This document shows, piece after piece, positions 16,106-38,732 of a stretch of 64,000 nucleotides of DNA (positions are counted from its first letter, which is position 1; every line of letters starts with the position of its first letter). This DNA comes from Candidatus Hydrogenedentota bacterium. GTDB taxonomy: Bacteria > Hydrogenedentota > Hydrogenedentia > Hydrogenedentales > CAILVY01. The DNA is taken from the NCBI GenBank assembly GCA_903837785.1, contig CAILVY010000392.1, forward strand, positions 1,140 through 65,139, written 5' to 3'. The notes beneath the pieces were generated by a model. That model was not told the origin of the DNA, ran no database searches, and saw nothing but the letters and a program-made list of their open reading frames with translations. The position numbers and the translations under genes were made by a program.

Positions 16106-16116
16106 GAACGTAAGGC

Positions 16117-17874: not shown

Positions 17875-17918
17875 CGCGCCCGCGCCCGTGCGCGTGCGCC
17901 GGATAAGGAGACTGGCTC

Positions 17919-19268: not shown

Positions 19269-20168
19269 ATGACTCGTCTGAGAAAGAGCAAACAAGGGTT
19301 CACCCTGGTGGAACTCCTGGTCGTGATGGCCATCATCGCCATCCTGACCGCCATCGTCGTGCCCAACGTCGTCAAGTACATCCGCAAGGGCCGCGTGACC
19401 CGCGCCCAGGCCGAGGTCAAGAGCATCGAGCTCTCGCTCGTGCGCATGATCACGGATGCGGATCGCAACAATCTTTCGCATTTGTTCAATCCGGGCGGCG
19501 TGGATGTGTTCCTTTCGCGTTTCGGCGATCCGATCACCGATGCGGCCGCCCGCATGGAGGCGGCGCAGTACCTGTACACCAACACCTTCTATGCGCTGCT
19601 GCGCGAAGGCCGTGCGGCCCTCACCGATTCCTTCGTGTCGCCGGACATTCCGGATTCGGATAAGCTCCGGTGGACCATCACCTTCGGCGACGTTCTGGAC
19701 GGCAACGTCGTGAAGAAGCTCGGCACCAGTTACCTGGCCGACATCCGCACGGACCCCTGGGGCAACCTCTATCAGATTTATCCCGGCCCCTGGCCCGCCC
19801 GCATGCGGCTCACCGATCTCTCCATTTCGGACAACCCGAACATGTTCCGCATTTACCAGGTGGAGAAGCAGGAGAATCTGCCCGGCTCGAAGGGCGGCGG
19901 GCGTCCGGACGCGCTCACGCTGGTCGATCGGCTTGACAGTGAAACCGGCCTGACCGAGACCTTCGGCTATGCCGCGCCGCGGGACAGTGTGGCGTTCATC
20001 TGGTCCATCGGCGAAAACATGGTCTCCGGACAGGTGCTCTACAACAATGTAGGCTACATCGCCAACGATGAAGGCCAGTATCCTGAGCAGGACCTGTTTT
20101 ACAAGGGCGGCGGCGACGACATCAACAACTGGGACAGCGGCCGGAGTTGGGAGCGTCTGTATAACTAA
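19269..20168 (+). CDS. Major prepilin/pseudopilin, GspG-like N-terminal region with an enlarged (299 aa) globular domain
   Basis: Leader MTRLRKSKQG/FTLVELLVVMAIIAILTAIVVPNVVKYIRKGRVTRAQAEV. Very strong RBS (AAAAAGGAGG-N5-ATG). First of four consecutive prepilin genes. Confidence 0.85.
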   Translation: MTRLRKSKQGFTLVELLVVMAIIAILTAIVVPNVVKYIRKGRVTRAQAEVKSIELSLVRMITDADRNNLSHLFNPGGVDVFLSRFGDPITDAAARMEAAQYLYTNTFYALLREGRAALTDSFVSPDIPDSDKLRWTITFGDVLDGNVVKKLGTSYLADIRTDPWGNLYQIYPGPWPARMRLTDLSISDNPNMFRIYQVEKQENLPGSKGGGRPDALTLVDRLDSETGLTETFGYAAPRDSVAFIWSIGENMVSGQVLYNNVGYIANDEGQYPEQDLFYKGGGDDINNWDSGRSWERLYN

Positions 20169-21632: not shown

Positions 21633-23189
21633 GTGCGCATTCCCCGCTCGCGGCGCGCCGGCTTGACGATGGCGGAGCTGCTGGTGGCCATGGCCATCTT
21701 CGCGGTGCTTGTCGCGGGAATTGCCACGCTGTTCACCGCGGCGATTGGCTCGGCGCGCAATGCGCGCGAAGTGAGCAAGGCCTACGAACAGGGGCGCGTC
21801 GCGCTGGGCATCATGGAACGGGATCTGACGGCGGCGTTTACTGCGCGCGAGCAGGCGCAGACGCAGCAGTTCTACGGGCAACCCGACGGCTACATGTTCG
21901 TGGGCCGGCTCGAGGCCACCTCTTCCGGGAGCGGCAGCACCGGCCTGTGCCGCAGCACTTTTGTGATCCATCCCTCGATCAGCACCGAGGTCTTCGAAAC
22001 GCAACTCGTGGAGGCGTGGGGGGTGCTTCGCGGCCATGTCCAGGAACAGGCGAGGCACCGGGCGGAAATTGCGGGCGCCGATGCGGAGGCGGCGATGACG
22101 GATGCCCGGGCGCTCTTTGACGCCATGTACCCGCTTCCCGCCGGGGGCGACAACGGCGTCATCGAGGTTCCGGTGCGGGTCACCACGAACGCGCTGCTGC
22201 ACATCGTCGAACCCGGCAAGTCGGATCTGGAAGACTTCGACCTACCCAAACTTCCCTCGTCCCCGGCAACGGCTCCCGTGTACCTGGAGTGGCCGTACAT
22301 CAGCCTCGAATTGCCGTCGAGCAATTACGAGACGGCCGACAACTTCGTCTTCAGCCAGGCGAACAATCCGAGCCTGTCCGATGAGGACAAGAATGTGGCC
22401 GCCGCCATCAAGTATGCGCTCTATCTGGAATTGATTTCCGCCATCAATCCGAGCGCAAAGACGCAGACCCCGGGCACGCCTGCGTTCTTCGCCTATGACC
22501 TGCGCCGGCTCATCTGGGCGGTTCCGGGGCTGAATACGTTGGGGACGGACGCGATCCAGAGCCTCCTGGCCGCGAAGAAACGGGAGATTTGGATTCGCAT
22601 TCTGTCGGAAGACCCGACACTTCTTTACGGATCGGCCGGGGCGCAGGCTGTAATCGGCAACACCTGCTGGATCATGTGGGGCGCGCAAGGGCGGCAAGTC
22701 GGCGATTTCGTCCTGGCCGAGCGCATCCTTCGCACCGCGCAGATTCTCGATTCCCGCACCGGGGATCCCGTCTGGATGCCGCCGGTGCCGGGGAATCCGC
22801 TGCTGGAGCCGATGGATGCCCTGTACCTCCCGGGGATCTTCCAGTATGGGAACGGGAACGAGCAGTTTGACCTGTACTTCAACGACTGCATGAACGTCAA
22901 TGCGCCTTCGAGCGGCGGCCTGAGCCATCTGCAATACGCGCGGATCGCGCAGCCCACCGCGGCGAACGTCCAGAGTTTCGACAAGACCTTGACGGAGATG
23001 AAGCAGGATCAGGCGGTGACGCAGGTCCTGGGCTCGCCGATGGATCCGCGTTTGCCCTATCTGGTTTCGCAGCAATTCTACGTGATGTCCGAACGGCCCT
23101 TGGCGGGTTCCTCTGACGTCCGAAAGTGGTTTTCGCAAGTCATCACGTTGCCGAGTGGATTTAGCCGGAGCGCGAATAGCGGGGGTTAA
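21633..23189 (+). CDS. Minor prepilin, GspJ/PilW-like (about 518 aa)
   Basis: Prepilin-like ...RSRRAG/LTMAELLVAMAIFAVLVAGIATLF followed by a GspJ-like ...GRVALGIMERDLTAAF. The start is uncertain: GTG 21633 gives an 11-aa leader and GTG 21579 gives 29 aa. The ORF-track start 21312 overlaps the previous gene and was rejected. Confidence 0.7.
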   Translation: MRIPRSRRAGLTMAELLVAMAIFAVLVAGIATLFTAAIGSARNAREVSKAYEQGRVALGIMERDLTAAFTAREQAQTQQFYGQPDGYMFVGRLEATSSGSGSTGLCRSTFVIHPSISTEVFETQLVEAWGVLRGHVQEQARHRAEIAGADAEAAMTDARALFDAMYPLPAGGDNGVIEVPVRVTTNALLHIVEPGKSDLEDFDLPKLPSSPATAPVYLEWPYISLELPSSNYETADNFVFSQANNPSLSDEDKNVAAAIKYALYLELISAINPSAKTQTPGTPAFFAYDLRRLIWAVPGLNTLGTDAIQSLLAAKKREIWIRILSEDPTLLYGSAGAQAVIGNTCWIMWGAQGRQVGDFVLAERILRTAQILDSRTGDPVWMPPVPGNPLLEPMDALYLPGIFQYGNGNEQFDLYFNDCMNVNAPSSGGLSHLQYARIAQPTAANVQSFDKTLTEMKQDQAVTQVLGSPMDPRLPYLVSQQFYVMSERPLAGSSDVRKWFSQVITLPSGFSRSANSGG

Positions 23190-23363: not shown

Positions 23364-26300
23364 ATGAGGCATATTATGAGACGCAGAAACGACTCCGGCG
23401 CGGCGCTTATCATCGCTATCGGCATTATGGTGATCCTGTTGGCCATTGCGCTGACCTTCTTCGCCGTGAGCCGCCTGGAACTGACCACCGCCACGAATGT
23501 CACGAACGCCGTGCGCGCCGACAACATCGCGGACGCCGCCAACGCCATCGCGATCCACGGCCTGAACAACGAGTTCATCCGCCACCCGAACGTCACCTCG
23601 ACCGACCACGCGTGGCGCACCTACTTCAACGGGGCGGCCTTCGCGGGCAAGCCTTGGGCGATGCGCAATGGCGTGCCGCTGCAGGCGGGGGGCGTTCCGC
23701 TGATCGATTTGAGCAAGTTCGATTTGGCCTCGACGCTGTTTGTCCGTTTTCCAGACAATTACGTCGAGCCGCTGTATCGCGGCGAACGCACGATGAACTG
23801 GCTCTACATCCCCCGGTTCGAGGGGGGCGTCCCGGTCTTCTACAGCCAGGCCACCCTGGAATACGCGAACGGCGCCGTGGTCTCCGTGCCCTATGCCCCG
23901 TTCAATGCGTTGAACAACCCCTTCGTCACGTCAGATTATTACGGCAGGCCCTCGGTCAACAACAGTCCCCTGTTTGGCGTGCCGCCGAACGAGGACGACG
24001 GGCTGCAGTACCCGACCGAGCAGATTGACGCCTGGACGGACGTGGACAACGACGGGGACGGCCTGCGCGATTCGCTGTGGCTGCCGATCCCGGCGGACCT
24101 CTTCTTCCCGAGCGACGGGGTGGACAACAATCTCAACGGGCTGATGGATGAGAGCCAGGAAAACACGTTCAACCAGGGCGGCGATGAGGACGGCGACGGG
24201 TATATCGGGTGGTACCGCGAGAGCGAAATTCTGGGCCGCCGGCTCGACCCGAGTCTTCCCGGCGACCGCGACACGCTGCCCAATGGCAATTTCGATCCGG
24301 ACGAGGCCATGGAAGCCGGCGTCTTCGTGTATAACGGCCTGGGCGAACCCGTGGACCTGGGCGACGGCGTTCCGAAACGCTTCGGCGACGGCCTGGACAA
24401 TGACGGGAACGGCCAGGTGGACGAAGCGGCCGAAGACCGGCTCTTTCTTTCCGCGCCGCTGCCGGGCATCTGGATTCCGGTGGATTTCAACGCGGACGGC
24501 ATTCCGGGCGATCTCGTGCCCGACGCCACCGGGCAGGCCAAGCCCCTCCGGGTGAAGGTTCCCGACACGATCCGGGTGCTGCTGGCGGGCGGGGCGGTGG
24601 CCACGGTGGGTGTCGCGGATGTGGACAAGCTGGACAACGACTTCGACCTCTTCGTCAACAACTACAGCACGTATGCCTACGTGGGCCCGAACACGCACAA
24701 CGCCGAGGCGTACCCGCCGTACCGTCTACGCGGCTACCGCTACCTCGGCAGCGACGGCACGAACCAGTTCTGGGATACGCAGGAAGACCCCTCGGCGATC
24801 AATTCGAATCTGCCCGCCGGCGACCTGTTCTATACCGCCGCGTGGATCTTGCCGGGCAACTGGAACGTGAAGGATCTGGACCTCTACGCGCTGCCGCGTT
24901 CGCGCGCCTATCGCGACATCAACCTCCAGACTTCCTTTGGCGGCGTTGCCGGGCTCGTCTTCGATCCGCCGATCGGGGACTATCAGAAGCTCAACGCGGA
25001 CGGGACCATGACCGCGGTGCACGTGGATTACGCCACGCTCGTGGCGCAGAGCCTCCGCATTACGCATTCCGGCGAGCCCGTCTGCGAACTGGCCGGCCGC
25101 ATGGCCGTCCTCATCACCGACGAGGCCAGCAAGGCCAGCCTCAACGCGGACGGCGGCCACAGTTACCGGGAAGGTCCCGATACGATGGCACGGGCGCTTA
25201 ACGAGGGCGCCTCGGCCGCCGAATACGACACCCGCGTGCTCCCCGATTTCGGCGTGGGGCGCTCCGCACAGGCCTGGAGCGTGCTCACCGGTTCGCCGGA
25301 CGGCACCGGCATCCTGCCGGCCGACAAGACGCCCTACGGCTATGACAAGAGCTTTCCGGGCTACGGGCGCACTGACGACAACAGCAATCTGTTCCTGCTT
25401 GCGTTCAATGGCCGCGACGACGACGGCGACGGCCTGGTCGACGAAGGGCTGCGCATTCCGCAGCCCGGCGACCCGGATTATCCGGGCAAGTGGTTCGAAT
25501 ACATCCAGCAACTGGGGTTCTTCGAGGGCATTGACGAACCGCAGGAACTCCAGCGGAGTGCGCCGCTCCGCAACGAGATCGCCGAGCGCCAGTTCAACGA
25601 AATCGGGAGCCTGGGCGATCGCCAGTTGAACGACATTGACCAGATCAAGCAGGTCAACGGTATCGGCGACACGATTTTTGACCGGCTGCGCAACCTGATC
25701 ACCGTGCACAGCACGGACCGGAACGTCGCCTATGTTCAGGACGCGTTCGGCAACCACCGCGCGGCCCACCGGCTCGACTTCAATTATGCGGGCGCCAAGC
25801 AGATTGCCGCGCAACTGCTCACCTACGGGGATTTCGCGCCGGCCACGCGCCGCTCGGACCTATTCACGAATTTCGACAATGCCATGCCGCCCGGCCCCGC
25901 GACGCAGCCGTTCTTCACGCAGGTGAACAGCGCGGCCGCCTTCGCCGAAGGGCTCCGGCAGAACGGCGCCCGGCTTTCCGCGCCCCCGATACATCCGGTG
26001 GCCGCGGGCGCCGATCTCGTGACGCAACTTGAAAGCGGCGGCGGGGGCTTCCTGCACGTGTTGGACCCCGGGAGCGAGTACATTCCGGTCACCAATCCGG
26101 CCACGCAGCACGCCTTCCCGGCCGACCCGTTCCTCGAAGCGCTGCAGATCGCCACGGACGTCGTGGATAACCGCGATTTCGACCACGCCCGCACCACGCT
26201 CACCACCGAGAAACTCGACATTCTTCCCGTCAACAACATCGGCGTGCCCTGGCCGGCGAGCCTGAACGACCGCGAGGCCGTGCCCGATGCCCAGGTGCTC

Positions 26301-29300
26301 CCCACGGAGGAAATCGACCAGAGCATCACTTCAACGCTCGGCAGCGAGAAGGGGCTGGCCGCCGTCGACAAGTGGTGGGCGCGCGTCAATCCCAAAGACC
26401 CGGACAGCAGCCCCTCCAGCACGCCCTCGAATATCCGCGTGGCCACCGACGACCCCAAGAATCCCGGCGCACTCGCACCCGAAGAGCGCCGCATCAGTTA
26501 TACCGCCGCGGGCAACGAGGCCATCAAGATCAACGAACTCATGGTCCGCGCCGTCCGCCGCGTCGAAGCGGAAGCCGTCACGCACCAGCCGCATATCGGC
26601 GTGCGCAGATCCTTGAGCTACATCCGCCTGAATGACTTCTCGGCCTACACCAACCTGATGGCAATGGCCGACATCCGGAACTATTACCCCTCGCCGTCCC
26701 AGGGCCTGCCCGAGTTTGACCTGGATGTGTTGCCATTGGGCGGCTGGACCAACCCGCGCGTGGCCAATCATGTGCTCGGCCCCAATCCCGCCTTTGGCAA
26801 TATGAACCCGGCCTTCTGGACCGGTAATTCAGACAATGTCATTCAGTTCATCTTCCTGCCTTCGTCAGGATTGCCGGAAGGCCGTTACTTCCTGACGCTG
26901 AATACGTTAAATGAGCAGAACCAGCCCACGATCACCGGGCCGGATCAAATGCAGTACGCAATCAAGTATGTGGATGTGGATGCCAACGGTACGCCGCTGC
27001 CCACCAGTACCACCATTCTCGGCGATATTGCCGCCGCAGCAACCCCTGCCGCGCTTGCCGCGTACTACGACCTCAACTGGGCGTCGGTTTCCTCGGAAGA
27101 GGTGGGATGTCGGCCCGGCGAGCCGAAAGGTTGGGTCTTTCTCGATGGCACTCCCATTCCCGGGGTATTCCCCAACCTCAATCTGGCTCCCAATCAGGCC
27201 CCGTTGAGCGATTACTACCTCGACGGCGGCGGCGCCGCCGGGGCCCCGCTGGCCTACCCCACGCACACGGTTACGATCCCCCCCGTTGCGAGCGGGAGGG
27301 CGCTGTGTGTTGCCTTGCGCATGAGTCCCAACCACCCGAATCCGTTGCGGGGCTTTGCCGTCAACTTCTTTGACTTCAGTCAGGAGCCGGACCACGAGTG
27401 GGTCGAGCTGGTGAACGTGTCGGATCAGCCGGTGGATATCGGAGGCTGGGATCTCGAAATCGGCATTCCGAACCCGCAGAACAAGCCCGATACGAACACG
27501 GACCCCTTCAAGTCCCGGTGGTCCGTGCCCGCGGGAACCAAGATTGGGCCGAACGGCCACGTGCTCCTGAGTTTCGAGTCCGAGAGGAACCATCCAACGG
27601 ACTCGAAGTTCGACAAGTTCCAGTTGGCCACGTTGCTGCCGAATGTCCTGAATGTGGACGGGATCGGGCTGGAGCGATGCGCGACCGAATTGTGCAATGT
27701 CGCCGACCCCGCCCAGGCCCTGAGCTTCCTGAACAACGTAACCGTCCCGCCCCTCTTTGACCAGTCCCGGTATTGGGGGGCGGAGCCGCTCTATGGCGAT
27801 GCTTCCGGCACGCTCACGATCTTCGGCGACCTCAGCGGAAGCGTTTTCGAGCGGAATTACCTCTGCGGCACGACTTTGCCGCCGCAGAAGGATCGCCGGG
27901 ACTACTTCATCGATTACATTGACAACAACGGCGACGGCGTGTCGTCCGCGTTCATGGTCCAGGCGCAGCAGGTGCCGCCCCTGCAGGATTTCGCGGACGA
28001 CCGGCGCACGGACAACGCCTATACGGAGAACGGCCAGCGCATCGACCCGAATCAGCCGGATGCGGCAACGAACGGCGTTCAATCAACTCCTTTGGATTTC
28101 CCGGGGCAACTGCTCAGCGATGCCGCGTTCATCACCTACGTCGACAACGATCATATTCCGCTGGCCGCGAAGCCGTGGGACCGGATTGTCAGCCTCGAAA
28201 ACAAGGTCCTCTGGCGCGAGAATGGGCAGAATCCGAAATCCACGCCGGTCACCCTCTATGATCAGGCGTTCGACCCCCTGGCCTCGGTGGGCAACCCTTA
28301 CCTGCCCGTGGCCAATCTCGCGCGAATCGTGCTCCAGGGCGGGTTCCTGCCCGACTATCCCGAACGCGACGGCATCGACAATGACGGCGACGGCGCCTAT
28401 CTGAACTGGGGCATCGACCCCATCACGGCCCTGCCCAGTCCCGTCGAATACATTCCCGGAACGCTCGACAAGGACGGCGTGGACAATGACCTCGACGGTC
28501 TGATCGACGAGCGCAGCGACGGCCAGGACGTGAACAAGAATTCTGACATTGTTCAGGACGGGGGCGACCTTCCCCGCGGCTTGTACGGAAGCGAGGGCGT
28601 GGACGAAGGGCGCTATGTCGGCGCGGGCGAGTATCGTCCCGCACCGCTGCCGGCGATCTTCCTCAACAACCACCACCAGGACAATCTTGCCGACGACAAC
28701 CCGGACGGCGTGTACCCGACGGACGTGCAGTGGCCGCTGCTCGAGGTGCCGGGCGAGAATGCCCTCGCGCCGGATGCTTACCCCTTCTGGTTCCGAAATC
28801 CCGCGCTGTTTGCGATGGACCCGGCCGGATGGTCTGACCCACTTGCGGTCGCTTTGTTCACCGATGTAGACGGGCTCCCGTCTCTGGCCATCAATGTAAC
28901 CCTTCCCCAACTCTCCGCCACGCTTTCTTATCCTTCGGTCGATCTGGTGCCAGGGGCAAGATACCGCATCGAGTGCACGCTGAGTCTTCCTTTCAACGAC
29001 AACCTGACTATCCAACTGGGGGATGGCGGTCCGTCCAGCCGCCTCGTGATTCCACCCACGGCCGCGGGCGGCGCGTTTGTTGCCGAACTCGTTTGCACTG
29101 TCAATACGGAAGCCTTCCTCCGCATCACGGTGGACGATGTGGGTCCGCCCGCTGGTGCGGTCTGTAACATCACCCGCTTGCGTGTGACGGCGCTGGACGA
29201 GTTCTACAAGGCCATCGACGTTCGTCATAACCCTGCAGGCTGTCTGTCTCCCTGTACTTCGGTGGAGTGCTGCAATTTCGTCTCGCGCCTCGGTGACAGC

Positions 29301-32300
29301 CGTCCCGGAATCTTGGCCGCGTGGAGCTGGCTGCATCCGGAATGGGCGGCCTGGTTCACCTTCGACCCGACCGGCACCCTGGTTAACACGCCCATTGAAG
29401 ACACGCCTTATCTGGGGATGGAGAAGGATCCCCCGGATTGGCGGGCCTTCCTGGAGCGGCGCTGGTACCCCGGCGACAACGTTATCGTGACGTTGTATGC
29501 GGGCAGCGCCGACACGGGCAAGGTGGCGGACCGGGTGACGTACCGCGAGTACGACGTGACGAACCGCGCTATCGACGACATGCTGCCCTGCCCGTACTTC
29601 CTGGACGGGATCGACCTGCAGGATCCCACGGTGGCCTATAACCCGAACCCCGGCGAGCGGGATCCGCTTGAAGTGCCGTCGCTGAATCCGGGCGTGTACA
29701 ACTCGTGGTGGCAGCCGGATCAGATGGCCTTTGACTTCTATCGATCGCTGGAGCGCAAGGATCCGCTGTACAACGGCGATCGTTTCGGCACGTCGAACCG
29801 GTGGGAAGCCACGGACGGCAATTACGACGACTGGGCCGAAAGCCTGACCCTGGCCACGGCCGGGATTCCCATGGATACGTTCCCGTACAAGATTACTGAC
29901 GGGAATTCGGACGGCGTGCACATCCTCAACCGTTTCGCCGTCGGGGACCTCACGCAACAGCGGGACACCGCGCGCCTGTTGCTGCACTGCTTCAGTGCCT
30001 CGCCCCTGCGTATGAACTATGCCGCGCGGGTGCGCTCGAATCCGCTGGACCTGGTGCGCCTGCGCGCGCCTTCCATGAGCGTGATCGTGCCGCAGCAGGT
30101 CGACCGTCCGCTGGCGCAGTTCAACGCCCGCGAGAATCTCGACCTGCAGTACCTGAACGGCGCGTCGTACCCCATCATTAACTACGACTGGGCGGCGCGC
30201 CATGTGCCGGAGACCGATCTGGTCAATCCGCCGGACGCTGCGGACATTCATCACCTGCCATCGGCCGGGGCGATCGTGCATGACCGGCCGTTCCGCAGTG
30301 ACGCCGGGCTCGCGCGCCTGCCGCACCTCACCTTCGACCACCGCATGCTGAACGTGGCGGCGGCCTACAACTTTAACCCGTTCTTCGCAGATGGCAGCTT
30401 CCTCTACGACATGAGCCACCTGAATCTGGGCGTGTTCAAGAATTACTCGACCTACAATGTCGAAACGCTCGGGTTCCAGGACGTGGCCCTGCGCGGCGCG
30501 GTGCTCGGCCAGGACGAAACGAACCTGAAGACCGTGGGCAACACGCTTCACGAGTCCAGCGACATCATGTCGCTGAATCCGATCGTATTGACGGTCGGCA
30601 CGGCGGAATTCACGCCGATCCGGCCCAGCCCTTCAAACAGCCTCGGCGGCGACCCTGTGCTGGTCTATCCCGCGGGGCAGGATTTCCAGGATCTCATGAG
30701 CTGGTTCGGACCCGGCGGGAACGTGGTGGCGCCCGCCGCCTGGATGCCCGTCTTCCTCTTCGAGCTGCCCTCGGACATGCAACTGCTCACGGTGGACAAC
30801 CTGCCCAAGCTGCCGAATCAGTACCCGTACTATCCGCCGTATCCGGACGGGTATAACCTCTACGCGGGCATGGGCCTGCTCACCTCGCCGCAGTTCATGC
30901 TGGACCCGGACTTCCTCAATGTGGGCGCCGGGATGAAGTTCGCCGGGGCGATGGCGCGGGACGACCTGGCGCGGCGCTGGCCGCTCGAAAAGCGCGCGTT
31001 CATGTACGTCAGCGAAGTGCGGCAGGGCGTCAACAACGACGTGGTCGTGAACAACGTCAAGAAATCGATTCACCGGCCCGAAGCCCTGTTTTCGTGGGAT
31101 GCGGCCGACGGGCTCGAGAACGGCGAGTACTACGTCTTCGTCGGCACGTACATCCCGGAATTCAAGAAGTGCTTCGACCAGGCCGCGGCGGTCGAGCCGT
31201 TGTTCAGCCTGCCGACGATGCTGCTTACGGGCACGCCCACGGGATTCTCGCCACAATTGCTCCTGAGCCTCGATCCGACGCAAAACGTGGTGCCGCAACA
31301 TCTGTTTGAACCGCGCCTGGCGCTCGAAGTCATCACGGACCGGACCCGCGCGCAAGGCCAGGCCCTGCAAGGGGCCGGCGGCGACGTGCCGGGCCTCGTC
31401 TATCCCTCTGACTGGAATCCGTCCGAGGAATACCGCCCGGATTCGGATGGAATCATTGCCTATGGTTCGACCGCCCAAACGAGCTGGCAGCCGCAGGTCG
31501 TGCGCGTGACCGACCACTTCCTGGCCTTGCGCGTGCGGAACATGGGCGATCCGGGGCAGGTGGCGGCCGTCACGCAGGTGGTGCTCGCCCCGCGCAAGCG
31601 CCTGCCCGGCAAGGTCAACCTGAACACGGTTCAGAACCGGATTATCCGAAGCGGCACGGCGGATCGCCTCTTCAATCCGCTGCTCGGGCTTCCGGGTGTC
31701 GTCGATGTGATGACCACGCTGATTGATCCGAATCCGGTCTACCCGACGCCGAACGACAAGACGCCGCGGGCCATGGGCTCGCCCATCCTGGCCAACGACG
31801 ACCTGGGCTTCCCGACGGCGACGGCGGCAGGTCCGACCGCGCCGTGGTCCGCGCCTAGTGCCTGCGCCGCAGGCCTTGCGATGCCGCCCGTGGCCAATGA
31901 GGTCACGGCCACCACCCCGAACGGGACAGACCTGCTGGCGGGGGCCTATTCGACGGCCGCGCGGCCCGAGGACGAAATCGCCGCGCTGCGGCTCAGCGCG
32001 CTGATGATGAACGGGCGCCAGGAACACGCGGACGGACGCTATTACGAGAGTATCGCGGATCTGCTCCGGGACGCCCTGGCCAAGCCATACACGGAAGCTG
32101 CCACGGGCGTGGTCAAGCGGGTCTATCCGCTGAGCAACGATGCGTCCGGCGAGCGGCGATTCGACGAGGCGGTGGCGCGTTTCCAACGCATGGCCAATCT
32201 GATCACGGTGCGTTCGGACGTGTTCGAGATCATCGCCACGGTGCAGTCCGGTTACGGCATCGACTATGACGGCGATGGCTGGGTCAATTACCGCAGTCCG

Positions 32301-32396
32301 GAATTCGTGACCACGGCGGAGAGCAAAGGCCGGCTGGTGTATGAGCGGCGAACGCCCGCGGCCCAGGCCGGCCAGCCCATGAAAAACAAGAAATAA
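23364..32396 (+). CDS. Giant (3,010 aa) GspK/PilX-class pseudopilin-like protein with Ca-loop motifs and a lamin-tail-domain-like core
   Basis: Uninterrupted 9-kb ORF. It carries five GspK landmarks, collinear with the 563-aa gspK: an anchor GAALIIAIGIMVILLAIALTFF without Glu5; VLITDEASKASLNA (25107-25148); an HhH-like LNDIDQIKQVNGIGDTIFDRL (about 25624-25704); GKVNLNTV (31608-31631); and NLITVRSDVFEIIATVQ (32196-32246). ATG 23364 has AGGA upstream. Confidence 0.8.
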   Translation: MRHIMRRRNDSGAALIIAIGIMVILLAIALTFFAVSRLELTTATNVTNAVRADNIADAANAIAIHGLNNEFIRHPNVTSTDHAWRTYFNGAAFAGKPWAMRNGVPLQAGGVPLIDLSKFDLASTLFVRFPDNYVEPLYRGERTMNWLYIPRFEGGVPVFYSQATLEYANGAVVSVPYAPFNALNNPFVTSDYYGRPSVNNSPLFGVPPNEDDGLQYPTEQIDAWTDVDNDGDGLRDSLWLPIPADLFFPSDGVDNNLNGLMDESQENTFNQGGDEDGDGYIGWYRESEILGRRLDPSLPGDRDTLPNGNFDPDEAMEAGVFVYNGLGEPVDLGDGVPKRFGDGLDNDGNGQVDEAAEDRLFLSAPLPGIWIPVDFNADGIPGDLVPDATGQAKPLRVKVPDTIRVLLAGGAVATVGVADVDKLDNDFDLFVNNYSTYAYVGPNTHNAEAYPPYRLRGYRYLGSDGTNQFWDTQEDPSAINSNLPAGDLFYTAAWILPGNWNVKDLDLYALPRSRAYRDINLQTSFGGVAGLVFDPPIGDYQKLNADGTMTAVHVDYATLVAQSLRITHSGEPVCELAGRMAVLITDEASKASLNADGGHSYREGPDTMARALNEGASAAEYDTRVLPDFGVGRSAQAWSVLTGSPDGTGILPADKTPYGYDKSFPGYGRTDDNSNLFLLAFNGRDDDGDGLVDEGLRIPQPGDPDYPGKWFEYIQQLGFFEGIDEPQELQRSAPLRNEIAERQFNEIGSLGDRQLNDIDQIKQVNGIGDTIFDRLRNLITVHSTDRNVAYVQDAFGNHRAAHRLDFNYAGAKQIAAQLLTYGDFAPATRRSDLFTNFDNAMPPGPATQPFFTQVNSAAAFAEGLRQNGARLSAPPIHPVAAGADLVTQLESGGGGFLHVLDPGSEYIPVTNPATQHAFPADPFLEALQIATDVVDNRDFDHARTTLTTEKLDILPVNNIGVPWPASLNDREAVPDAQVLPTEEIDQSITSTLGSEKGLAAVDKWWARVNPKDPDSSPSSTPSNIRVATDDPKNPGALAPEERRISYTAAGNEAIKINELMVRAVRRVEAEAVTHQPHIGVRRSLSYIRLNDFSAYTNLMAMADIRNYYPSPSQGLPEFDLDVLPLGGWTNPRVANHVLGPNPAFGNMNPAFWTGNSDNVIQFIFLPSSGLPEGRYFLTLNTLNEQNQPTITGPDQMQYAIKYVDVDANGTPLPTSTTILGDIAAAATPAALAAYYDLNWASVSSEEVGCRPGEPKGWVFLDGTPIPGVFPNLNLAPNQAPLSDYYLDGGGAAGAPLAYPTHTVTIPPVASGRALCVALRMSPNHPNPLRGFAVNFFDFSQEPDHEWVELVNVSDQPVDIGGWDLEIGIPNPQNKPDTNTDPFKSRWSVPAGTKIGPNGHVLLSFESERNHPTDSKFDKFQLATLLPNVLNVDGIGLERCATELCNVADPAQALSFLNNVTVPPLFDQSRYWGAEPLYGDASGTLTIFGDLSGSVFERNYLCGTTLPPQKDRRDYFIDYIDNNGDGVSSAFMVQAQQVPPLQDFADDRRTDNAYTENGQRIDPNQPDAATNGVQSTPLDFPGQLLSDAAFITYVDNDHIPLAAKPWDRIVSLENKVLWRENGQNPKSTPVTLYDQAFDPLASVGNPYLPVANLARIVLQGGFLPDYPERDGIDNDGDGAYLNWGIDPITALPSPVEYIPGTLDKDGVDNDLDGLIDERSDGQDVNKNSDIVQDGGDLPRGLYGSEGVDEGRYVGAGEYRPAPLPAIFLNNHHQDNLADDNPDGVYPTDVQWPLLEVPGENALAPDAYPFWFRNPALFAMDPAGWSDPLAVALFTDVDGLPSLAINVTLPQLSATLSYPSVDLVPGARYRIECTLSLPFNDNLTIQLGDGGPSSRLVIPPTAAGGAFVAELVCTVNTEAFLRITVDDVGPPAGAVCNITRLRVTALDEFYKAIDVRHNPAGCLSPCTSVECCNFVSRLGDSRPGILAAWSWLHPEWAAWFTFDPTGTLVNTPIEDTPYLGMEKDPPDWRAFLERRWYPGDNVIVTLYAGSADTGKVADRVTYREYDVTNRAIDDMLPCPYFLDGIDLQDPTVAYNPNPGERDPLEVPSLNPGVYNSWWQPDQMAFDFYRSLERKDPLYNGDRFGTSNRWEATDGNYDDWAESLTLATAGIPMDTFPYKITDGNSDGVHILNRFAVGDLTQQRDTARLLLHCFSASPLRMNYAARVRSNPLDLVRLRAPSMSVIVPQQVDRPLAQFNARENLDLQYLNGASYPIINYDWAARHVPETDLVNPPDAADIHHLPSAGAIVHDRPFRSDAGLARLPHLTFDHRMLNVAAAYNFNPFFADGSFLYDMSHLNLGVFKNYSTYNVETLGFQDVALRGAVLGQDETNLKTVGNTLHESSDIMSLNPIVLTVGTAEFTPIRPSPSNSLGGDPVLVYPAGQDFQDLMSWFGPGGNVVAPAAWMPVFLFELPSDMQLLTVDNLPKLPNQYPYYPPYPDGYNLYAGMGLLTSPQFMLDPDFLNVGAGMKFAGAMARDDLARRWPLEKRAFMYVSEVRQGVNNDVVVNNVKKSIHRPEALFSWDAADGLENGEYYVFVGTYIPEFKKCFDQAAAVEPLFSLPTMLLTGTPTGFSPQLLLSLDPTQNVVPQHLFEPRLALEVITDRTRAQGQALQGAGGDVPGLVYPSDWNPSEEYRPDSDGIIAYGSTAQTSWQPQVVRVTDHFLALRVRNMGDPGQVAAVTQVVLAPRKRLPGKVNLNTVQNRIIRSGTADRLFNPLLGLPGVVDVMTTLIDPNPVYPTPNDKTPRAMGSPILANDDLGFPTATAAGPTAPWSAPSACAAGLAMPPVANEVTATTPNGTDLLAGAYSTAARPEDEIAALRLSALMMNGRQEHADGRYYESIADLLRDALAKPYTEAATGVVKRVYPLSNDASGERRFDEAVARFQRMANLITVRSDVFEIIATVQSGYGIDYDGDGWVNYRSPEFVTTAESKGRLVYERRTPAAQAGQPMKNKK

Positions 32397-32423: not shown

Positions 32424-32577
32424 TTCCATACGGTACAATAGAGACGGAGAGACAGTAGAAGGCGTCCGGTTTGCGCCCTGGGCCTCGGACAAGCACCTGT
32501 CCCGGCGACCGCACTAATGGTATTATCTTTGACGGCTGTTCACGGGGGTCGTGGCTAGCGTTAGAGGAGATTGCAGC

Positions 32578-35500
32578 ATGAGAGGCTCACACGCGGGGCA
32601 GCGCACCGGCGCGCGTCACGTTAGCATACCCCCATCCGGCGGCCCGTCGTGGTTTCACACCGCGGCACTGCTCGTTCTGTGCGCGGTGATGGGTGCCGGG
32701 GCGTCGGCCCAAACCTGTCTGCTCCTGAACGACGGCTTCGAGTCCGGGCATCAGGACTGGACCGAGCAGACGGACTCGCTCGGGACCGAGGCCATCATCA
32801 CGCAGGACACCACGGCCGCCAGCAGCGGAGACTGGCTCAGCATCTTCCGCGGCGGCGCGGACGTGGGCATCGATGACGGCTTTCTCTCACAGACGGTCAA
32901 CGCCGTATGGAGCGGCATTGATCAAACCCTTATCCACCCCGGAATCGTCGTGCCCACAGGCGGGGCCGGCCTGAGCCTGCGCCAGAGCCTGCCGCTGCCC
33001 GCGGCGATTCCCGGTGCCTCGGTGCATCTGGACTACAACGGACCGGTGGCCTTCTCGGGCGCCAATGTGGTTGCGTTTGACCTGTCCGTGCTTTCCGGTG
33101 GCGATGCCGGAGACACCCTGAGCCTCCTGATCGGCGGGACGGCCGTATTCACCGTGGGCGGAAATGGGGTTGTTCAACTGGGTCCTGCCGGACCGGTATT
33201 CGGCGCCACCTATACCACCGTTACCCTGCCCGTCGTGGCCTCGGGCGACCAGACCGTGAGCTTCGAATGCGCGCAGAATGTCGGGGCGAGCGTCTTCTAT
33301 GTGGACAATGTCAAAGTCGATGGCATGCCGCTCGGGATGCCGGGCGGCTTCGAAGAGACGCCTTCAGTCTGGACCGCAACGCCTGCGGTGGCGCAGGTGA
33401 TTGTGGCGGAACATGCGTCCGAAGGAACGCATGCGGCGAAGTTCGGCTCAAGCCTCAGCCTGGGTTTCCACTTGAAGATCTTCCCCCTGGGCACCGGCTC
33501 TTCTTCCCTGCAGTTTCTGTTGAATGGCGCGGTTCAGGTCGAGATCTTCGACAACGACCTTTACTACACCGGTTATCGGCTCGTCTCCATTCCGTTGCGG
33601 CGTGCGCTCGCGGGGACTTCGCCCGCGGTTGAACTCAGGCTTCAGGGTTCGGGGGCCGGAGTTTTCTATGTGGATGATTTCAGCCTGGATACCCCGGTAG
33701 GTTCGATTGCATTTCCCGGGGGATGCGACGGCCTCGACTGCGCCAGCAGCAACTGGGTGGAATCCAGCGCCAACAGCATCATTGTAGACACGCCTGAAGC
33801 GCGGAGCGCACCCAAGGCGGCCCGCTTCGGCGGATTCCCGTTGACGCTCGAGTGCAGCCTCAACGTTGTTCGTGCCAGCGGCAATGGCCTTGACACTATG
33901 AGGGTGATTCTGGGAGGAGACGAAATCTTCTCCGTGGATTCCAACGGTTCCGTCAGCTCCGCGTATCTGACCGGCCAGTCCGGCGGTCCCTACAGCCTGC
34001 TGGTCTTCGATCTGACCGCGCTCGGTTTGGCCGGCTCGGTCGATCTCGAAGTAAGGAGTCATATCGAGGGGGACAGCATTTTCCGCCTCGACGATTTCTG
34101 CCTGCGGGGCATTACGGACTGCCTTACGGGGAATGCCATCGTCAACGGAAACTTCGAAGGCGGTCCGGCGCCCTGGACGCAGATTCCTGCCGCGCCCGCC
34201 CTGATTGTGCCGGAGCCGGACGGTACCCTTGGCAAGGGCAATGTGGCCAGTTTCGGTTCTGATCCGGTTGCGACGTTTTCGTTCTGGCTGAAGATCGCAG
34301 GCGCCGGCCTTGCGACCGACTCGTTGACCGCAACGCTGGACAACACAACCACCCTCTTCCGCGTCCAGGGCGACGGCACGGACAGTGGAGGAGCCACGGT
34401 CGATTACACGCAGGGCTATGTGCAGGTCCAGGTGACCCGGCCGCTCGTCGATTTCCTGGGATCCCATACCCTGAGATTTGACGCCTCCGTGCACCGCAGC
34501 ATCGGCGCGACGGTCTTTCTGGTCGACGATATCCGCCTCTTCTTCCGCGATCTCAATTCCGGGACCGAGTCGGACTTTGTCCTCAACGGCAGTTTCGAGA
34601 CCGGCGCCACGCCAGAGTCGAACTGGAACACCTCTTCCGCGCAGGTTATCGTGACCGAGGGCGGGAGCAATGGCGCGGCCCATAGCGCGACGCACATGGC
34701 ACGGTTCAGCGCCGGGGTGCCCACCACGGAGAAATCGACCCTGGCGCAGGAGGTGCTCCATGTGCCCCCGTTCCGCGCGCTGACCTTTGACCTGCGCATT
34801 GCGCAGCAGAACCCGGATATCGGCGCCGGCATCGCCAACACGGATGTCCTGCGTGTTTCGGTGACGAGCGAGTCGACCACAACGGAACTCCAGACGATCC
34901 TTGCGTCCGACGCCACCTACGCCAAGGCCGCGTATACCTCGGTCAGCATTCCCCTCATGTCGGCCACCAGCATCTGGAACGACTTCGGTGCACATGACAC
35001 GACGGTCACCTTTGCCAGCGACATCGCCAACGGCGCCGCGACCTCGCAGTTCTACCTCGATAATGTATGCCTGAAATCCGCGGGGGGCTATGCCAATCTC
35101 TCCTGGAACACCTGCGACGTGACGCCTTCGGCGGTCAACTCGAATGCTCTGCGCGTGGTGCAACACAGCGCCGCGAACCAATTCAGCATATCCGCCAACG
35201 TGACCGGTCTCTTTGGCAATGTGCCCATCCGGCTGATCGTGCAGCCCCAGCTCTCGTCTGCAACGGATTTCTCCGATGTGCCCGCTGCCTTCGTCGTGGA
35301 CACGACCTCCACCGGCGACCTGGTGACCGCGACCTTCCCGCTGCCGGCGCTTCCCTTCGTGGCCGCGCCCTCGGGCACCGTGTGCACGGACGGCCTCGCG
35401 ACGGTCCACCTGTTGCTCCTCGGCCCCACGGATTCCGCCGAAGTGGGGTTTGAAGGTCTCGCGGGAGGGAATCAGTTCATCCTCGATACTGTACAACCGG

Positions 35501-37122
35501 CATTCCGCGCGGCCGTGAGTCCCCTTGCGAGCGGCTACATCTCGACTACGAATGACACTATTGCCGCGGCCTCCGGCCAGGCATTCCCCCTGGGCTGGCC
35601 GGGTGTGTTGATTCTGCCGGCGAGCCAGGTGCCGCTCCTGGGTGCATCGACCTCCGAAGGCGCGCAGGTCTTCTTCAATACGAAGTCCAATCCGCTCGGT
35701 TTCGGCGTCCATCTCGAATTCCAGGATGTGCCCCCCTCCGACCTGAGCGGGAACGTGTACGGCACCGTGATCGTCGGCGGCTTTGTGCCGCCGGTGAGTA
35801 ACGTGGCCGGTGTTGGTGCCGATCCGAGCCTGCCCGCCAACTTCAGCACGGCGATGTGGGACGACATTACGCTGTCGCCCGTCACCAGCCTGAGCCTGAA
35901 CGGCGGCGCAGATCTCATGTCGGCCGACTGGGCCGTGAGCAACGTGCCGCTGCAACCCGTCTATGTGGAGGCGTCGGGCAAGATCTTTGTGTCTGACCTC
36001 GCCGGGAACACGGCGTCCACGCCAAACGCGCTGCACACCTGGTGGATGCGCGAGGCGGCGGCGGCGTTCACGGGCGCCTCGCAGTCCGTCTCCTCGACCC
36101 CGACGTTTGTCTGGGATCTTGTCCGGCCCGGATCGGCGCCGACGAATGCGGCTCCCTGCGCGCCCGTCGCCCAGTTCCGGCTCTGGATCGCCGATGATCA
36201 GTCCAGCCCGAGCACCTCTCAATATACGGCGCTGACGGACTGGAGTTCCTGGACCAGCGAAAAGTCCATTGACCGGGACAAGTATCCGGACCTCAACACC
36301 ATCATCAATCAGTACCCCGACACGCACCTGATGATCACGGTGGCCGGCGCTGACGAAGCCGGGAACGTGCAGGACACCAGCGCCGCCGGCGACGTGATTG
36401 CGAGCCCGGCGCTCTGCCCGGTCTCCTACAGGCTCTGGAAGACGAGCGGCTCGGCGCTCGCGCTCGAGACCACGATCCGGGCGCAGCTCTGGTACAACTT
36501 GCTGGATACTGTGCCCGAACCCGAGACCAATGGAGTTCCTCATAACACGTCCGTACCGGGTGACCTGCGGGGTGTGCGCCGCTGCAGTCTGGACGAATTG
36601 AACTTCGGATCGAGCACGCGCGTGCCGCTGACGCCGCTCGAGCCGTGCTTGCAGCGGGTCGAGGCGCAGTTCACCGTGAACCCGGGCGCGAACGCGCCGT
36701 CAATCCCGGGGGGCTGGAAAGTGTGCTGGCAACTCCACGAGGACAACCGGCTCGTGGCGCAGGGCGTCAAGGCATACGCGAACCTCGGCAACAGCCTGCC
36801 GGAGGCGGTGATTACGATTCCCTCGGATTTGATCGACGATCCGACGCTTGTGGTGGCGGATTTCCTGAACAAGTCGCCGCGAAACTGCGGCTGCACGGGG
36901 GACCGCCTCGGGGACGACGGCGCTGCGGACGCCAATCAGAGCTGCGACGGGCAGAAGCACCGCCGCCGCGAGGTGCTTTACCGCTTCACCGCGCGGACCG
37001 TGGCCACCGATTGCCAAGGCACACAGCCCGAGGACGTCACGCCCGCGACGTTCAGCTTTTCCGTATATACGACCGAGGCGTTCAAGGATGAGCAGCCGGT
37101 GAAAGTGTTCACGCGCGAGTAA
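32578..37122 (+). CDS. Secreted 1,514-aa protein with five tandem CBM-like beta-sandwich modules plus a ~680-aa C-terminal region of unknown fold
   Basis: Signal peptide ...AALLVLCAVMGAGASA/Q. Five modules each open with an NG-FE-x-W type motif (LNDGFESGHQDW, PGGFEETPSVW, CASSNWVES, VNGNFEGGPAPW, LNGSFETGATPESNW). Each closes with aromatic-x-(V/L)-D-(D/N) (VFYVDNV, VFYVDDF, IFRLDDF, VFLVDDI, QFYLDNV). Confidence 0.75.
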   Translation: MRGSHAGQRTGARHVSIPPSGGPSWFHTAALLVLCAVMGAGASAQTCLLLNDGFESGHQDWTEQTDSLGTEAIITQDTTAASSGDWLSIFRGGADVGIDDGFLSQTVNAVWSGIDQTLIHPGIVVPTGGAGLSLRQSLPLPAAIPGASVHLDYNGPVAFSGANVVAFDLSVLSGGDAGDTLSLLIGGTAVFTVGGNGVVQLGPAGPVFGATYTTVTLPVVASGDQTVSFECAQNVGASVFYVDNVKVDGMPLGMPGGFEETPSVWTATPAVAQVIVAEHASEGTHAAKFGSSLSLGFHLKIFPLGTGSSSLQFLLNGAVQVEIFDNDLYYTGYRLVSIPLRRALAGTSPAVELRLQGSGAGVFYVDDFSLDTPVGSIAFPGGCDGLDCASSNWVESSANSIIVDTPEARSAPKAARFGGFPLTLECSLNVVRASGNGLDTMRVILGGDEIFSVDSNGSVSSAYLTGQSGGPYSLLVFDLTALGLAGSVDLEVRSHIEGDSIFRLDDFCLRGITDCLTGNAIVNGNFEGGPAPWTQIPAAPALIVPEPDGTLGKGNVASFGSDPVATFSFWLKIAGAGLATDSLTATLDNTTTLFRVQGDGTDSGGATVDYTQGYVQVQVTRPLVDFLGSHTLRFDASVHRSIGATVFLVDDIRLFFRDLNSGTESDFVLNGSFETGATPESNWNTSSAQVIVTEGGSNGAAHSATHMARFSAGVPTTEKSTLAQEVLHVPPFRALTFDLRIAQQNPDIGAGIANTDVLRVSVTSESTTTELQTILASDATYAKAAYTSVSIPLMSATSIWNDFGAHDTTVTFASDIANGAATSQFYLDNVCLKSAGGYANLSWNTCDVTPSAVNSNALRVVQHSAANQFSISANVTGLFGNVPIRLIVQPQLSSATDFSDVPAAFVVDTTSTGDLVTATFPLPALPFVAAPSGTVCTDGLATVHLLLLGPTDSAEVGFEGLAGGNQFILDTVQPAFRAAVSPLASGYISTTNDTIAAASGQAFPLGWPGVLILPASQVPLLGASTSEGAQVFFNTKSNPLGFGVHLEFQDVPPSDLSGNVYGTVIVGGFVPPVSNVAGVGADPSLPANFSTAMWDDITLSPVTSLSLNGGADLMSADWAVSNVPLQPVYVEASGKIFVSDLAGNTASTPNALHTWWMREAAAAFTGASQSVSSTPTFVWDLVRPGSAPTNAAPCAPVAQFRLWIADDQSSPSTSQYTALTDWSSWTSEKSIDRDKYPDLNTIINQYPDTHLMITVAGADEAGNVQDTSAAGDVIASPALCPVSYRLWKTSGSALALETTIRAQLWYNLLDTVPEPETNGVPHNTSVPGDLRGVRRCSLDELNFGSSTRVPLTPLEPCLQRVEAQFTVNPGANAPSIPGGWKVCWQLHEDNRLVAQGVKAYANLGNSLPEAVITIPSDLIDDPTLVVADFLNKSPRNCGCTGDRLGDDGAADANQSCDGQKHRRREVLYRFTARTVATDCQGTQPEDVTPATFSFSVYTTEAFKDEQPVKVFTRE

Positions 37123-37280
37123 CCTTGCGGAAATGCGCCGGATCGTGTTAAATAGAGTTCCGATCGCCTCGGCGTACTGCCGGGGCGCTTGAAATACGTC
37201 GAGATCCCCAGTGAGGCGGATGCGCGCCGGGATTGCCCGAGATCGGGCATGCCGGCCTGGACGGTGGAAGGCCAGGACGA

Positions 37281-38660: not shown

Positions 38661-38682
38661 CGGTTCGCCGAATGGGAAAATA

Positions 38683-38711
38683 CTTGTCAAAACACTTTTA
38701 GTCTTGACAAG
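38683..38711. promoter_or_regulatory. Perfect 8-bp inverted repeat CTTGTCAA-N13-TTGACAAG (candidate operator) overlapping the -35 box
   Basis: Read from the DNA. The right arm contains the TTGACA of the promoter below. Confidence 0.4.
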
Positions 38712-38732
38712 GCAAAGGAAGTTTATTACAAT
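38704..38732 (+). promoter_or_regulatory. Near-consensus sigma70 promoter TTGACA-N17-TACAAT for the pilMNOPQ operon
   Basis: Read from the DNA. It lies in an AT-rich island in the 219-nt gap upstream of pilM. Confidence 0.6.

Follow-up and report, generated by a model that had tools for sequence, protein, structure and literature searches.

Introduction

Tip complexes decide which targets type IV filaments bind and whether assembly occurs. Within them, as two studies of 2026 showed, docking takes place on the K-type minor pilin, whose β-sheet is completed by a strand provided either in cis or in trans. In current models, the last strand passes in trans from PilC/PilY1 to PilK in type IVa pili, and in GspK of type II secretion systems (T2SS) it is present in cis (PMC13533445; 10.64898/2026.09.18.752573). 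In CpaL (~600 amino acids; aa), the pilin-like sheet is built from the N-terminal and the extreme C-terminal parts, and the middle of the protein is dispensable (PMC13533445). A survey of InterPro collected more than 1,200 modular pilins, the longest of 860 aa (PMC8179133). PilC/PilY1 has been described as the largest component of type IVa pili, at just over 100 kDa.

Here we analysed a stretch of 64,000 nucleotides from a Candidatus Hydrogenedentota genome (contig CAILVY010000392.1; the whole stretch is hereafter called the window), which encodes a 3,010-aa protein (hereafter the giant) in the position expected of a K-type minor pilin. An earlier note, made from the DNA sequence, had described this protein as a GspK-class tip pseudopilin whose ordinary minor-pilin scaffold was inflated about five-fold. 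Our analysis led us to consider it likely that the giant serves as K-position minor pilin, of the GspK/PilK/PilX class, in a pilus of retractile, type IVa-like kind that is conserved in Hydrogenedentota. It probably forms the head by which this retractable pilus adheres. Coordinates of all features are collected in Table 1.

A giant gene family of Hydrogenedentota

The unbroken 9-kb open reading frame (ORF) of the earlier note, with 3,010 aa and ~0.33 MDa, was borne out: a single frame is open from 23286 to 32396, and the 3,010-aa product from the start at 23364 has a mass of 328.6 kDa and a pI of 4.5. The first ATG, at 23286, would give 3,036 aa, and further candidate starts are found at 23364 and 23376 (MRRRNDSG...), the last of which corresponds to the start of the closest homologue, P0001. 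Because of these three candidates, the start is uncertain by 4–26 codons. The GC content at third codon positions (GC3) was 0.77–0.86 in each 1.5-kb slice, similar to the adjacent genes and of coding type throughout, and no meaningful tandem repeats were found within the ORF.

P0001, which comes from another sample, has 3,008 aa and is colinear with the giant over the full length at 54% identity. A search of 5.8 billion proteins yielded at least 100 homologues of 1,750–3,430 aa with 27–54% identity. The named homologues are from Candidatus Hydrogenedentes or Hydrogenedentota and are annotated as 'hypothetical' or 'lamin tail domain-containing'. When one genome per species was scanned, 71 genome loci carried a giant-family gene, 47 of them labelled Hydrogenedentota and the others bearing generic or conflicting labels. 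Intact ORFs of 2,060–2,737 aa were present on contigs of 1.6–7.9 Mb, including chromosome-scale assemblies, so that a chimeric assembly need not be seriously considered. Conservation spans the whole length of the protein, including most of the extra sequence, and only aa ~1771–2010 are lineage-specific. These data establish the giant as a member of a conserved family of an uncultured phylum, not a single-genome oddity. The survey of gene size in related genomes that the earlier note had proposed shows a conserved family of proteins of 2,000–3,400 aa whose inserts are themselves conserved, not a normal scaffold inflated in this one genome.

The C-terminal 271 aa were also used as a query against 1.84 billion representative proteins. 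All 188 matches were located at the C-terminus of their targets; the eight short matches inspected began mid-domain and appeared to be fragments of giants, and no ordinary-sized relative bridging to GspK was found among these representatives.

Two observations concern the records themselves. Several with a giant-family gene are labelled 'uncultured Nitrospirales/Nitrospiraceae' or 'Bathyarchaeia' (L002, L005, L008, L019, L020, L024, L029, L038, L040, L042, L052, L057, L063, L064, L067, and L071), and these are probably mislabelled or contaminated bins. In one genome (L058, 3001-9674), the longest open frame of the homologous region is just 983 aa; this copy may be frameshifted or pseudogenised, or may reflect a sequencing error.

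A GspK/PilX-type N-terminus and colinear GspK motifs

The N-terminus shows a prepilin-type junction, ..NDSG/AALIIAIGIMVILL.., with the hydrophobic anchor GAALIIAIGIMVILLAIAL at aa 12. Position +5 is Ile in the giant, and Glu never occurs there in the family. G12, the Gly at −1, and A14 were invariant across 55 giant-family members. The helix at aa 13–86 is the sole strongly hydrophobic segment of the protein, and AlphaFold2 modelled a helix at aa 11–73 with a predicted local distance difference test (pLDDT) score of 76–91. GspK/PilX proteins, which likewise have Gly at −1, are prepilin-peptidase substrates, as known from XcpX and PulK. The earlier note had described an 'uncleaved-type' anchor without Glu5; the lack of Glu5 holds, whereas 'uncleaved-type' was an interpretation rather than an observation and has no foundation, the Gly being invariant. 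From its sequence, the leader would be cleaved by prepilin peptidase.

Three independent profile methods placed this N-terminus in the GspK/PilX class. The NCBIfam GspK profile matched aa 11–86 of the giant (E 2e-6) and all 19 giant-family members compared (best E 6.9e-13). The score of the giant was 27.6 bits for the whole protein and 34 bits for a spliced core (described below), below the curated cut-off of 130 (NF037980). Pfam PilX_N (PF14341) was found in 6 of the 19 members with a best E of 8e-7, the giant itself not being among them. Alignment of the giant family with a 30-sequence GspK alignment by hhalign gave a probability of 94% (E 1e-7) over the first 70 columns, the only significant part. 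Conversely, a profile of the giant-family N-terminus scored 24 bits against the ordinary GspK of the window and at most 11 bits against all other pilins of the window.

The ordinary 563-aa GspK of the window served as the comparator for the landmarks beyond the helix. All five landmarks listed in the earlier note were present in GspK order, the HhH segment only weakly (ComEA-HhH match, E 0.17). Four weak local hhalign matches followed the same order, with P values of 1e-3 for I.DE..K.NLN, 0.03 for the HhH region, 2e-3 for ..GRININTA, and 0.075 for ..SDVFEI. The ITDEASKASLNA strand, whose motif is also present in the solved structure of XcpX, was modelled by AlphaFold2 as 13 residues; the giant has S where its family has N in DE..K.N.N. 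The GKVNLNT motif lies at aa 2749, with G2749, N2752, N2754, and T2755 near-invariant in the family, and ITVRSDVFEIIATVQ lies at aa 2947.

The invariant positions of GspK (D-E-x-G-K-x-N-L-N; G-x-x-N-x-N-T-A; S-x-x-F-R) are, in order, the near-invariant positions of the giants, and these hallmarks are also present in solved XcpX and in GspK of enterotoxigenic Escherichia coli (ETEC). The landmarks are kept in nearly all of 100 homologues, with the N- and C-terminal ones always on one ORF. When the window was translated in six frames, giving 128,000 residues, neither of two GspK-derived patterns, G[RK].N.NT or S[ND].F.I, occurred outside the ordinary GspK and the giant. Hidden Markov models of internal and C-terminal segments of the giant family placed the motifs correctly on the GspK of the window, with scores near zero.

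A core ending before the last strand, followed by a secreted protein

The C-terminal hairpin of the giant (..RSDVFEIIATVQ.. / ..EFVTTAESKGRLVYERR) aligns to ..SNVFRIYGDG.. / ..VRIEAYVWRTP of GspK. Giants end 0–17 aa after ..YER, 33 of 87 within 2 aa, and their tails are polar. In contrast, 89 ordinary GspKs of Hydrogenedentota continue for 14–123 aa to a conserved last strand, ..FRILDWKVIR, and ETEC GspK (3ci0_K) continues for ~16 aa past the aligned hairpin. Judged from these alignments, the giant ends before the last β-strand of GspK and has none in cis.

A large protein with a signal peptide (1,100–1,523 aa) is encoded directly after the giant in all six genomes checked. Relatives of the 1,523-aa protein were taken from synteny, and a homologue search with this protein returned itself alone. 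The N-terminal parts vary, with repeats in the window and Beta_helix or TIG domains elsewhere. Conservation is found in the last ~400 aa, where WW, DEAGN, and a QP 8–10 aa from the end are invariant. Neither the protein nor its conserved C-terminal domain matched Pfam or the PDB. If the core indeed has one strand fewer than GspK, we propose tentatively, by analogy with PilC/PilY1, that the open sheet might be completed in trans by this secreted protein as a candidate strand donor; we would put this below an even chance.

Nested insertions

Compared with the 563-aa GspK, the giant has 444 additional residues between the helix and DE..K, 83 before the HhH segment, and 1,962 between ..ITVHS and GKVNLNT, in agreement with the ~2,400 extra residues that the earlier note had placed between the landmarks. 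The inserted residues total ~2,450, and ~80% of the giant is non-pilin. The distance between GKVNLNT and SDVF has stayed the same (202 aa in the giant versus 211 in GspK).

Five DxDxDGxxD loops were found; those of insertion 1 include aa 228, 254, and 345, and D226, D228, and D236 are invariant. By sequence these loops resemble EF-hand-like calcium sites. PilY1 has an EF-hand-like calcium site.

The lamin-tail domain (LTD; Pfam PF00932) had been named in the earlier note as a target for profile search, and the search found it. When contiguous, the LTD of the giant scored 24–30 bits (24.2 in one comparison) and covered profile positions 21–92 only; the three pieces scored 38 bits once spliced, covering positions 4–108 of 109 and exceeding the gathering score of 34.3. 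Since the threshold was passed only after splicing, the LTD is read as split by inserts of ~265 and ~605 aa. Piece 3 carries the invariant run ..GDRFGT.NRW.ATDGNYDDW. Pfam LTD was detected in 16 of the 19 members; in the giant it lies in the main insertion and is the sole Pfam domain of the protein. Because the LTD is itself interrupted by inserts, the architecture, as read from the sequence, is one of nested insertion rather than beads on a string. Domain callers would routinely under-call this split LTD (26499-29858).

An AlphaFold2 model covering aa 2160–2745 was confident for aa ~2400–2745. The best Foldseek matches of this model, all non-significant (E ≥0.02), were without exception jelly-roll binding modules: CBM6/35/36/51, gingipain adhesin, laminin LF, and Eph ligand-binding domains. 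The model gives only a hint that aa ~2400–2745 may be a jelly-roll binding module.

The host operon

The position of the giant after G-, H-, I-, and J-like prepilins, as noted earlier from the window (starts at 19269, 20204, 21088, and 21633), was the same in every genome examined. The full gene order (PilB, PilT, second PilB, PilC, four prepilins, giant, secreted protein, PEGA/FGE protein, PilM, and secretin) was shared by the window, L001, L074, and L075; L073 and L076 shared the part that begins with the ATPases and ends with the large secreted protein, after which they diverged. No other K-type gene was present in the operons of the window, L001, and L073–L076. For the J-like gene, the prepilin motif falls at aa 112–137 of a longer ORF from 21312 that overlaps the I-like gene, supporting the GTG start at 21633.

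The PilT-family ATPase scored 468 bits (NCBIfam cut-off 319) and PilM 167 bits (cut-off 133). Both long ATPases contain an MshE-type motif for binding cyclic di-GMP (c-di-GMP), at 55 and 63 bits versus 38. A separate canonical T2SS is encoded at 1-12000, comprising a secretin, GspE, GspF, two GspG-type proteins, H-, I-, and J-like proteins, GspK, L, and M. The family profile of its ordinary GspK matches solved XcpX (E 3.9e-9) and ETEC GspK (E 2.5e-5). From this gene content, we assign the giant to a retractile type IVa-like pilus and not to a T2SS. With PilT, PilM, and a PilQ-like secretin in the operon, the giant is better described as a minor pilin belonging to a retractile pilus than as the 'pseudopilin' of the earlier note, a T2SS-type assignment that we do not retain.

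Table 1. Positions in the window of the giant gene, its parts, and the genes around it (relatives of the downstream protein are given on their own records)
Feature	Coordinates	Strand	Remarks
Basic leader ending in Gly(−1), MRHIMRRRNDSG	23364..23399	+	Read from sequence
Hydrophobic N-terminal helix, GspK/PilX type, without Glu5 (aa 13-86)	23400..23621	+	NCBIfam GspK, hhalign, AlphaFold2
Gene of the giant, putative K-position minor pilin	23364..32396	+	3,010 aa from 23364; stop included at 32396
Insertion 1 (aa ~100-565), several DxDxDGxxD calcium-loop-like motifs	23661..25058	+	+444 aa versus GspK; no Pfam family
β-strand with GspK hallmark I-x-D-E-x-x-K-x-N-L-N, here ITDEASKASLNA at aa 584	25074..25148	+	hhalign P 1e-3
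Helical region: HhH-like segment (aa 756-781), ..ITVHS, second N-x-N-like start (RLDFNYA)	25149..25853	+	Low model confidence; hhalign P 0.03 to GspK HhH region
Main insertion (aa ~831-2735, ~1,900 aa)	25854..31568	+	Conserved blocks except aa 1771-2010
LTD piece 1 (aa 1046-1072, KINELMVR...)	26499..26579	+	Pfam LTD after splicing
LTD piece 2 (aa 1336-1420, HEWVELVN...)	27369..27623	+	Contiguous partial Pfam LTD
LTD piece 3 (aa 2026-2165)	29439..29858	+	Most conserved block of giant
β-rich region (aa ~2400-2745), possible jelly-roll binding module	30561..31598	+	AlphaFold2 pLDDT 62-96
Second GspK hallmark ..LAPRKRLPGKVNLNT.. then ..GLPGV	31584..31703	+	hhalign P 2e-3 to ..LTVHGDW-GRVNVNTA
C-terminal β-hairpin ITVRSDVFEIIATVQ ... 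EFVTTAESKGRLVYERR	32202..32351	+	Strands pLDDT 76-85; aligns to GspK S-x-N-x-F ... YV(F/W)R
Secreted 1,523-aa protein, PilY1/MshQ position	32551..37122	+	Follows giant
Relatives of the downstream protein	L001 18316-22713, L073 17848-21819, L074 18424-22755, L075 17441-21370, L076 16633-19935		Synteny
PilB-like ATPase, PilT-family ATPase, second PilB/GspE-like ATPase, PilC/GspF platform	13080..19163	+	
G-like prepilin, 299 aa, likely major pilin	19269..20168	+	N_methyl 37.9 bits; KQG/FTLVELLVV
H-like minor pilin, 295 aa	20204..21091	+	
I-like minor pilin, 142 aa	21088..21516	+	
J-like minor pilin, ~518 aa from GTG	21633..23189	+	GspJ N-terminal match
PEGA + FGE-like protein, PilM (738 aa), two small unassigned genes, 1,125-aa secretin (TPR, STN)	37233..46002	+	
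Ordinary GspK, 563 aa, comparator	8280..9971	+	T2SSK_1st 66.7 bits; NCBIfam GspK 121.7 bits

Several further features of the neighbourhood were observed. The two PilB-like extension ATPases (13080-14987 and 16117-17874, +), with their N-terminal c-di-GMP motifs, flank the PilT-family ATPase, and other pilins of the operon are also large (G-like, 299 aa; J-like, ~518 aa). The protein with PEGA and FGE-sulfatase domains (37233-38660, +), which also occurs in L001, L074, and L075, is similar to the ring lipoprotein GldK/PorK of the type IX secretion system at 81.7 bits, below the cut-off, and may play a structural role in the envelope instead of acting as an enzyme. The secretin (42625-46002, +) is PilQ-like and weakly resembles the pilus outer-membrane protein Amuc_1098 of Akkermansia, and PilM (38880-41096) resembles Amuc_1101; these sequence likenesses suggest kinship with pilus clusters of the Planctomycetes–Verrucomicrobia–Chlamydiae (PVC) type. 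Ahead of its C-terminal strands (~9600-9700), the ordinary GspK has consecutive GGVNS repeats and an extended segment of low complexity, which account for its 563 aa versus ~400 aa in most relatives. Further downstream (47448-62970) are genes for a sugar ATP-binding cassette transporter, a sulfotransferase, a 1,068-aa membrane sulfatase fusion, a ThuA/3-keto-disaccharide hydrolase/HEAT protein, and an α-L-fucosidase with an F5/8 type C domain. These genes point to a glycan-degrading lifestyle, possibly involving sulfated glycans. Speculatively, they could reflect life on polysaccharide particles, which would fit the carbohydrate-binding-like modules.

Proposed mechanism and alternative explanations

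We propose the following mechanism for the giant. The basic leader would be cut after the invariant Gly, and the long hydrophobic helix without Glu5 would reside in the inner membrane. A pilin core would be assembled from parts distant in sequence, namely the helix, the DE..K..N.N strand, and the C-terminal hairpin, and together with the I-like and J-like (plus the H-like) minor pilins it would make up a complex priming polymerisation of the 299-aa major pilin. Because the core would join this priming complex, the giant is proposed to lie at the pilus tip. The ~2,450 inserted residues would project from the tip as a binding head composed of the calcium-loop-rich insertion 1, the split LTD, and β-sandwich modules like the jelly-rolls of carbohydrate-binding proteins and adhesins, and PilT would retract the pilus against whatever the head holds. 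Assembly would probably be under c-di-GMP control, because both extension ATPases carry c-di-GMP-binding N-domains.

A number of results weigh against this proposal. Neither Pfam T2SSK nor T2SSK_1st (PF21687) was detected in the giant, including seven fragments of it at E ≤5; a Pfam search of the whole protein and these fragments returned the partial LTD alone. T2SSK_1st was found in one of the 19 members, at E 0.037, versus 66.7 bits for the ordinary GspK. Profile and fold support past the first ~75–86 residues was individually below significance (hhalign P 1e-3 to 0.075). For the spliced core, an artificial construct of aa 1–150, 565–960, and 2690–3010, a profile search matched none of the PDB sequences. 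Its AlphaFold2 model had a mean pLDDT of 60 and a predicted template modelling score of 0.5, with the helix, the DE..K strand, and the C-terminal hairpin as the confident parts, and Foldseek against the PDB gave no significant match (3ci0_K at rank 25, E 2.5). In the downstream protein no similarity to PilY1 (PF05567 β-propeller) was detected, and the strand character of its C-terminal residues is not clear in every genome. Finally, a 329-kDa tip subunit with a possible 160-kDa partner is, to our knowledge, far beyond any tip component known to cross a secretin. The check for a GspK-like profile or fold that the earlier note had proposed thus came out positive for the N-terminal region only, with no Pfam T2SSK match and no significant GspK match of the AlphaFold2 core in Foldseek. 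Having weighed the evidence on both sides, we treat K-type descent as likely: there is a good chance that the giant works like a K-type minor pilin and descends from one, while it lies outside the GspK family as formally delimited.

The size of the giant bears on how a tip could be built. On one reading, which we hold to be improbable, the tip complex would exceed 0.5 MDa (the mature K pilin of 327 kDa, the 1,523-aa partner inserted into its open sheet, and the H, I, and J minor pilins) and would require an undescribed tip-biogenesis route, because a folded unit of more than 0.5 MDa is too bulky for a PilQ-type secretin. As part of the same improbable reading, bead-like calcium-stabilised domains might be threaded stepwise and fold outside, the head might be permanently docked at the surface, or export might use a wider or remodelled secretin (1,125 aa, TPR and STN) plus the GldK-like PEGA/FGE protein as a ring. 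The argument from size against easy secretin passage would also suit a giant that caps a T2SS-type pseudopilus, as a periplasmic piston head or plug or as an exported secretion-system tip with no surface pilus. The harpoon and piston ideas of the earlier note, like the problem of secretin passage, are speculative. GspK is indeed the best-scoring named profile for the giant N-terminus; for the platform protein, GspF comes out slightly ahead of PilC, and for the long ATPases, GspE scores almost as well as PilB. This explanation is nevertheless unlikely: a PilT-family ATPase and PilM are above their cut-offs in the operon of the giant, the window contains a complete canonical T2SS (GspD-M) with its own GspK, PilX_N also matches, and the giant is without the cis terminal strand of T2SS GspKs.

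Similarly small is the chance we give to the giant not being a filament subunit at all, but an envelope or surface protein with a pilin-like signal-anchor, co-transcribed with the pilus genes and acting as an accessory such as an adhesin, a matrix protein, or a substrate of the machine. Such a protein would account for statistically solid pilin similarity being limited to the N-terminal helix, for the fold test that gave no significant match and the ~80% of non-pilin sequence, and for NCBI naming its relatives only 'lamin tail domain-containing' or hypothetical. It would leave unexplained the fixed occupation of the K slot in every examined genome, none with another K gene, the invariant Gly at −1, the GspK hallmarks conserved in order past the helix, and the conserved extreme C-terminal hairpin that maps onto the GspK hairpin. 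An artefact, either a chimera made in assembly or several genes joined by sequencing error, came into question on account of the extreme length alone; we regard its chance as negligible, and we rejected it on the intact homologues, the even GC3, the lack of meaningful repeats, and the colinear P0001. Homologues of the same length and order occur in many independent assemblies, including the 1.6–7.9 Mb contigs, coding composition is uniform, and the N- and C-terminal landmarks are never separated.

If the giant is the K-type minor pilin of a retractile pilus, a whole phylum would possess K-type pilins bearing 2,000–3,000 residues of nested modules, with a PilY1-like partner apparently kept, and the giant would greatly exceed in size all other pilin-like subunits that this search found, compared with the surveyed maximum of 860 aa. 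These proteins would provide natural tests of how much cargo a pilin core tolerates at internal sites, of how such a head exits the cell, and of what uncultured Hydrogenedentota hold, for which the nearby sulfatase, fucosidase, and sugar-transport genes suggest polysaccharide particles. A family now called 'hypothetical' or 'lamin tail domain-containing' would also gain a usable name.

Relation to described systems

The giant shares with GspK (ETEC 3CI0; Pseudomonas aeruginosa XcpX 5VTM) the slot after H-, I-, and J-like genes, an N-terminal helix of the same type with Gly at −1 and no Glu5, the order of the hallmarks I.DE..K.NLN, G(R/K).N.NTA, and S..F..I, and an extra domain that lies within the pilin fold instead of being attached at its end. 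It differs in being 6–10 times longer, in scoring 28–34 bits versus 130, in having no detectable T2SSK_1st, in its PilT/PilM pilus operon, and in ending before the last strand of GspK.

PilK/PilX proteins are ~200 aa long. With the PilK/PilX and PilC/PilY1 pair, the giant shares the K slot of a retractile operon with PilB, PilT, PilC, PilM, and a secretin, as well as PilX_N in some family members other than the giant itself and a sheet that is apparently open C-terminally (PMC13533445; 10.64898/2026.09.18.752573). The next gene encodes a large secreted protein, variable in its N-terminal part and conserved in its C-terminal part, that parallels PilY1 and MshQ in position and layout. Unlike in PilK/PilX, the pilin itself bears ~2,450 aa of modules. 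The PilC/PilY1 β-propeller (PF05567) was not found in any of the 19 giants, and the N-terminus of the giant is of pilin type. A fusion of PilX to PilY1 was considered and rejected, as there is no PilY1 signature and a separate gene occupies the PilY1 position.

In the Verrucomicrobia, Verru_Chthon cassette protein A is encoded beside three prepilin-type genes. Its profile (TIGR02600, length 1,296) matched the N-terminus in 17 of the 19 members (best E 1.3e-10). The giant, however, matches only the first ~56 profile positions at 12–15 bits, all members lie far below the cut-off of 332, and giants are 2–3 times longer. Bacterial LTD proteins share the Pfam LTD with the giant, but this domain is interrupted and makes up ~4% of it, and the name is silent on the pilin ends. 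In the literature we found nothing relevant on giant K-type pilins, LTD pilins, or Hydrogenedentota pili.

In modular pilins (Streptococcus sanguinis PilB and PilC, CofB, and ComZ) and in TadG/CpaL, as proposed for the giant, a pilin module displays functional modules at the tip. With a pilin-type N-terminus and an LTD on one polypeptide, the giant falls within the definition of modular pilins (Raynaud et al. 2021), although its modules are nested insertions and not C-terminal grafts. On this comparison, the giant is probably an extreme modular K-type minor pilin and is the largest pilin-like subunit found in this search, and what is new in it are the nested internal insertions, the phylum-wide conservation, and the apparent separate partner in the PilY1 position.

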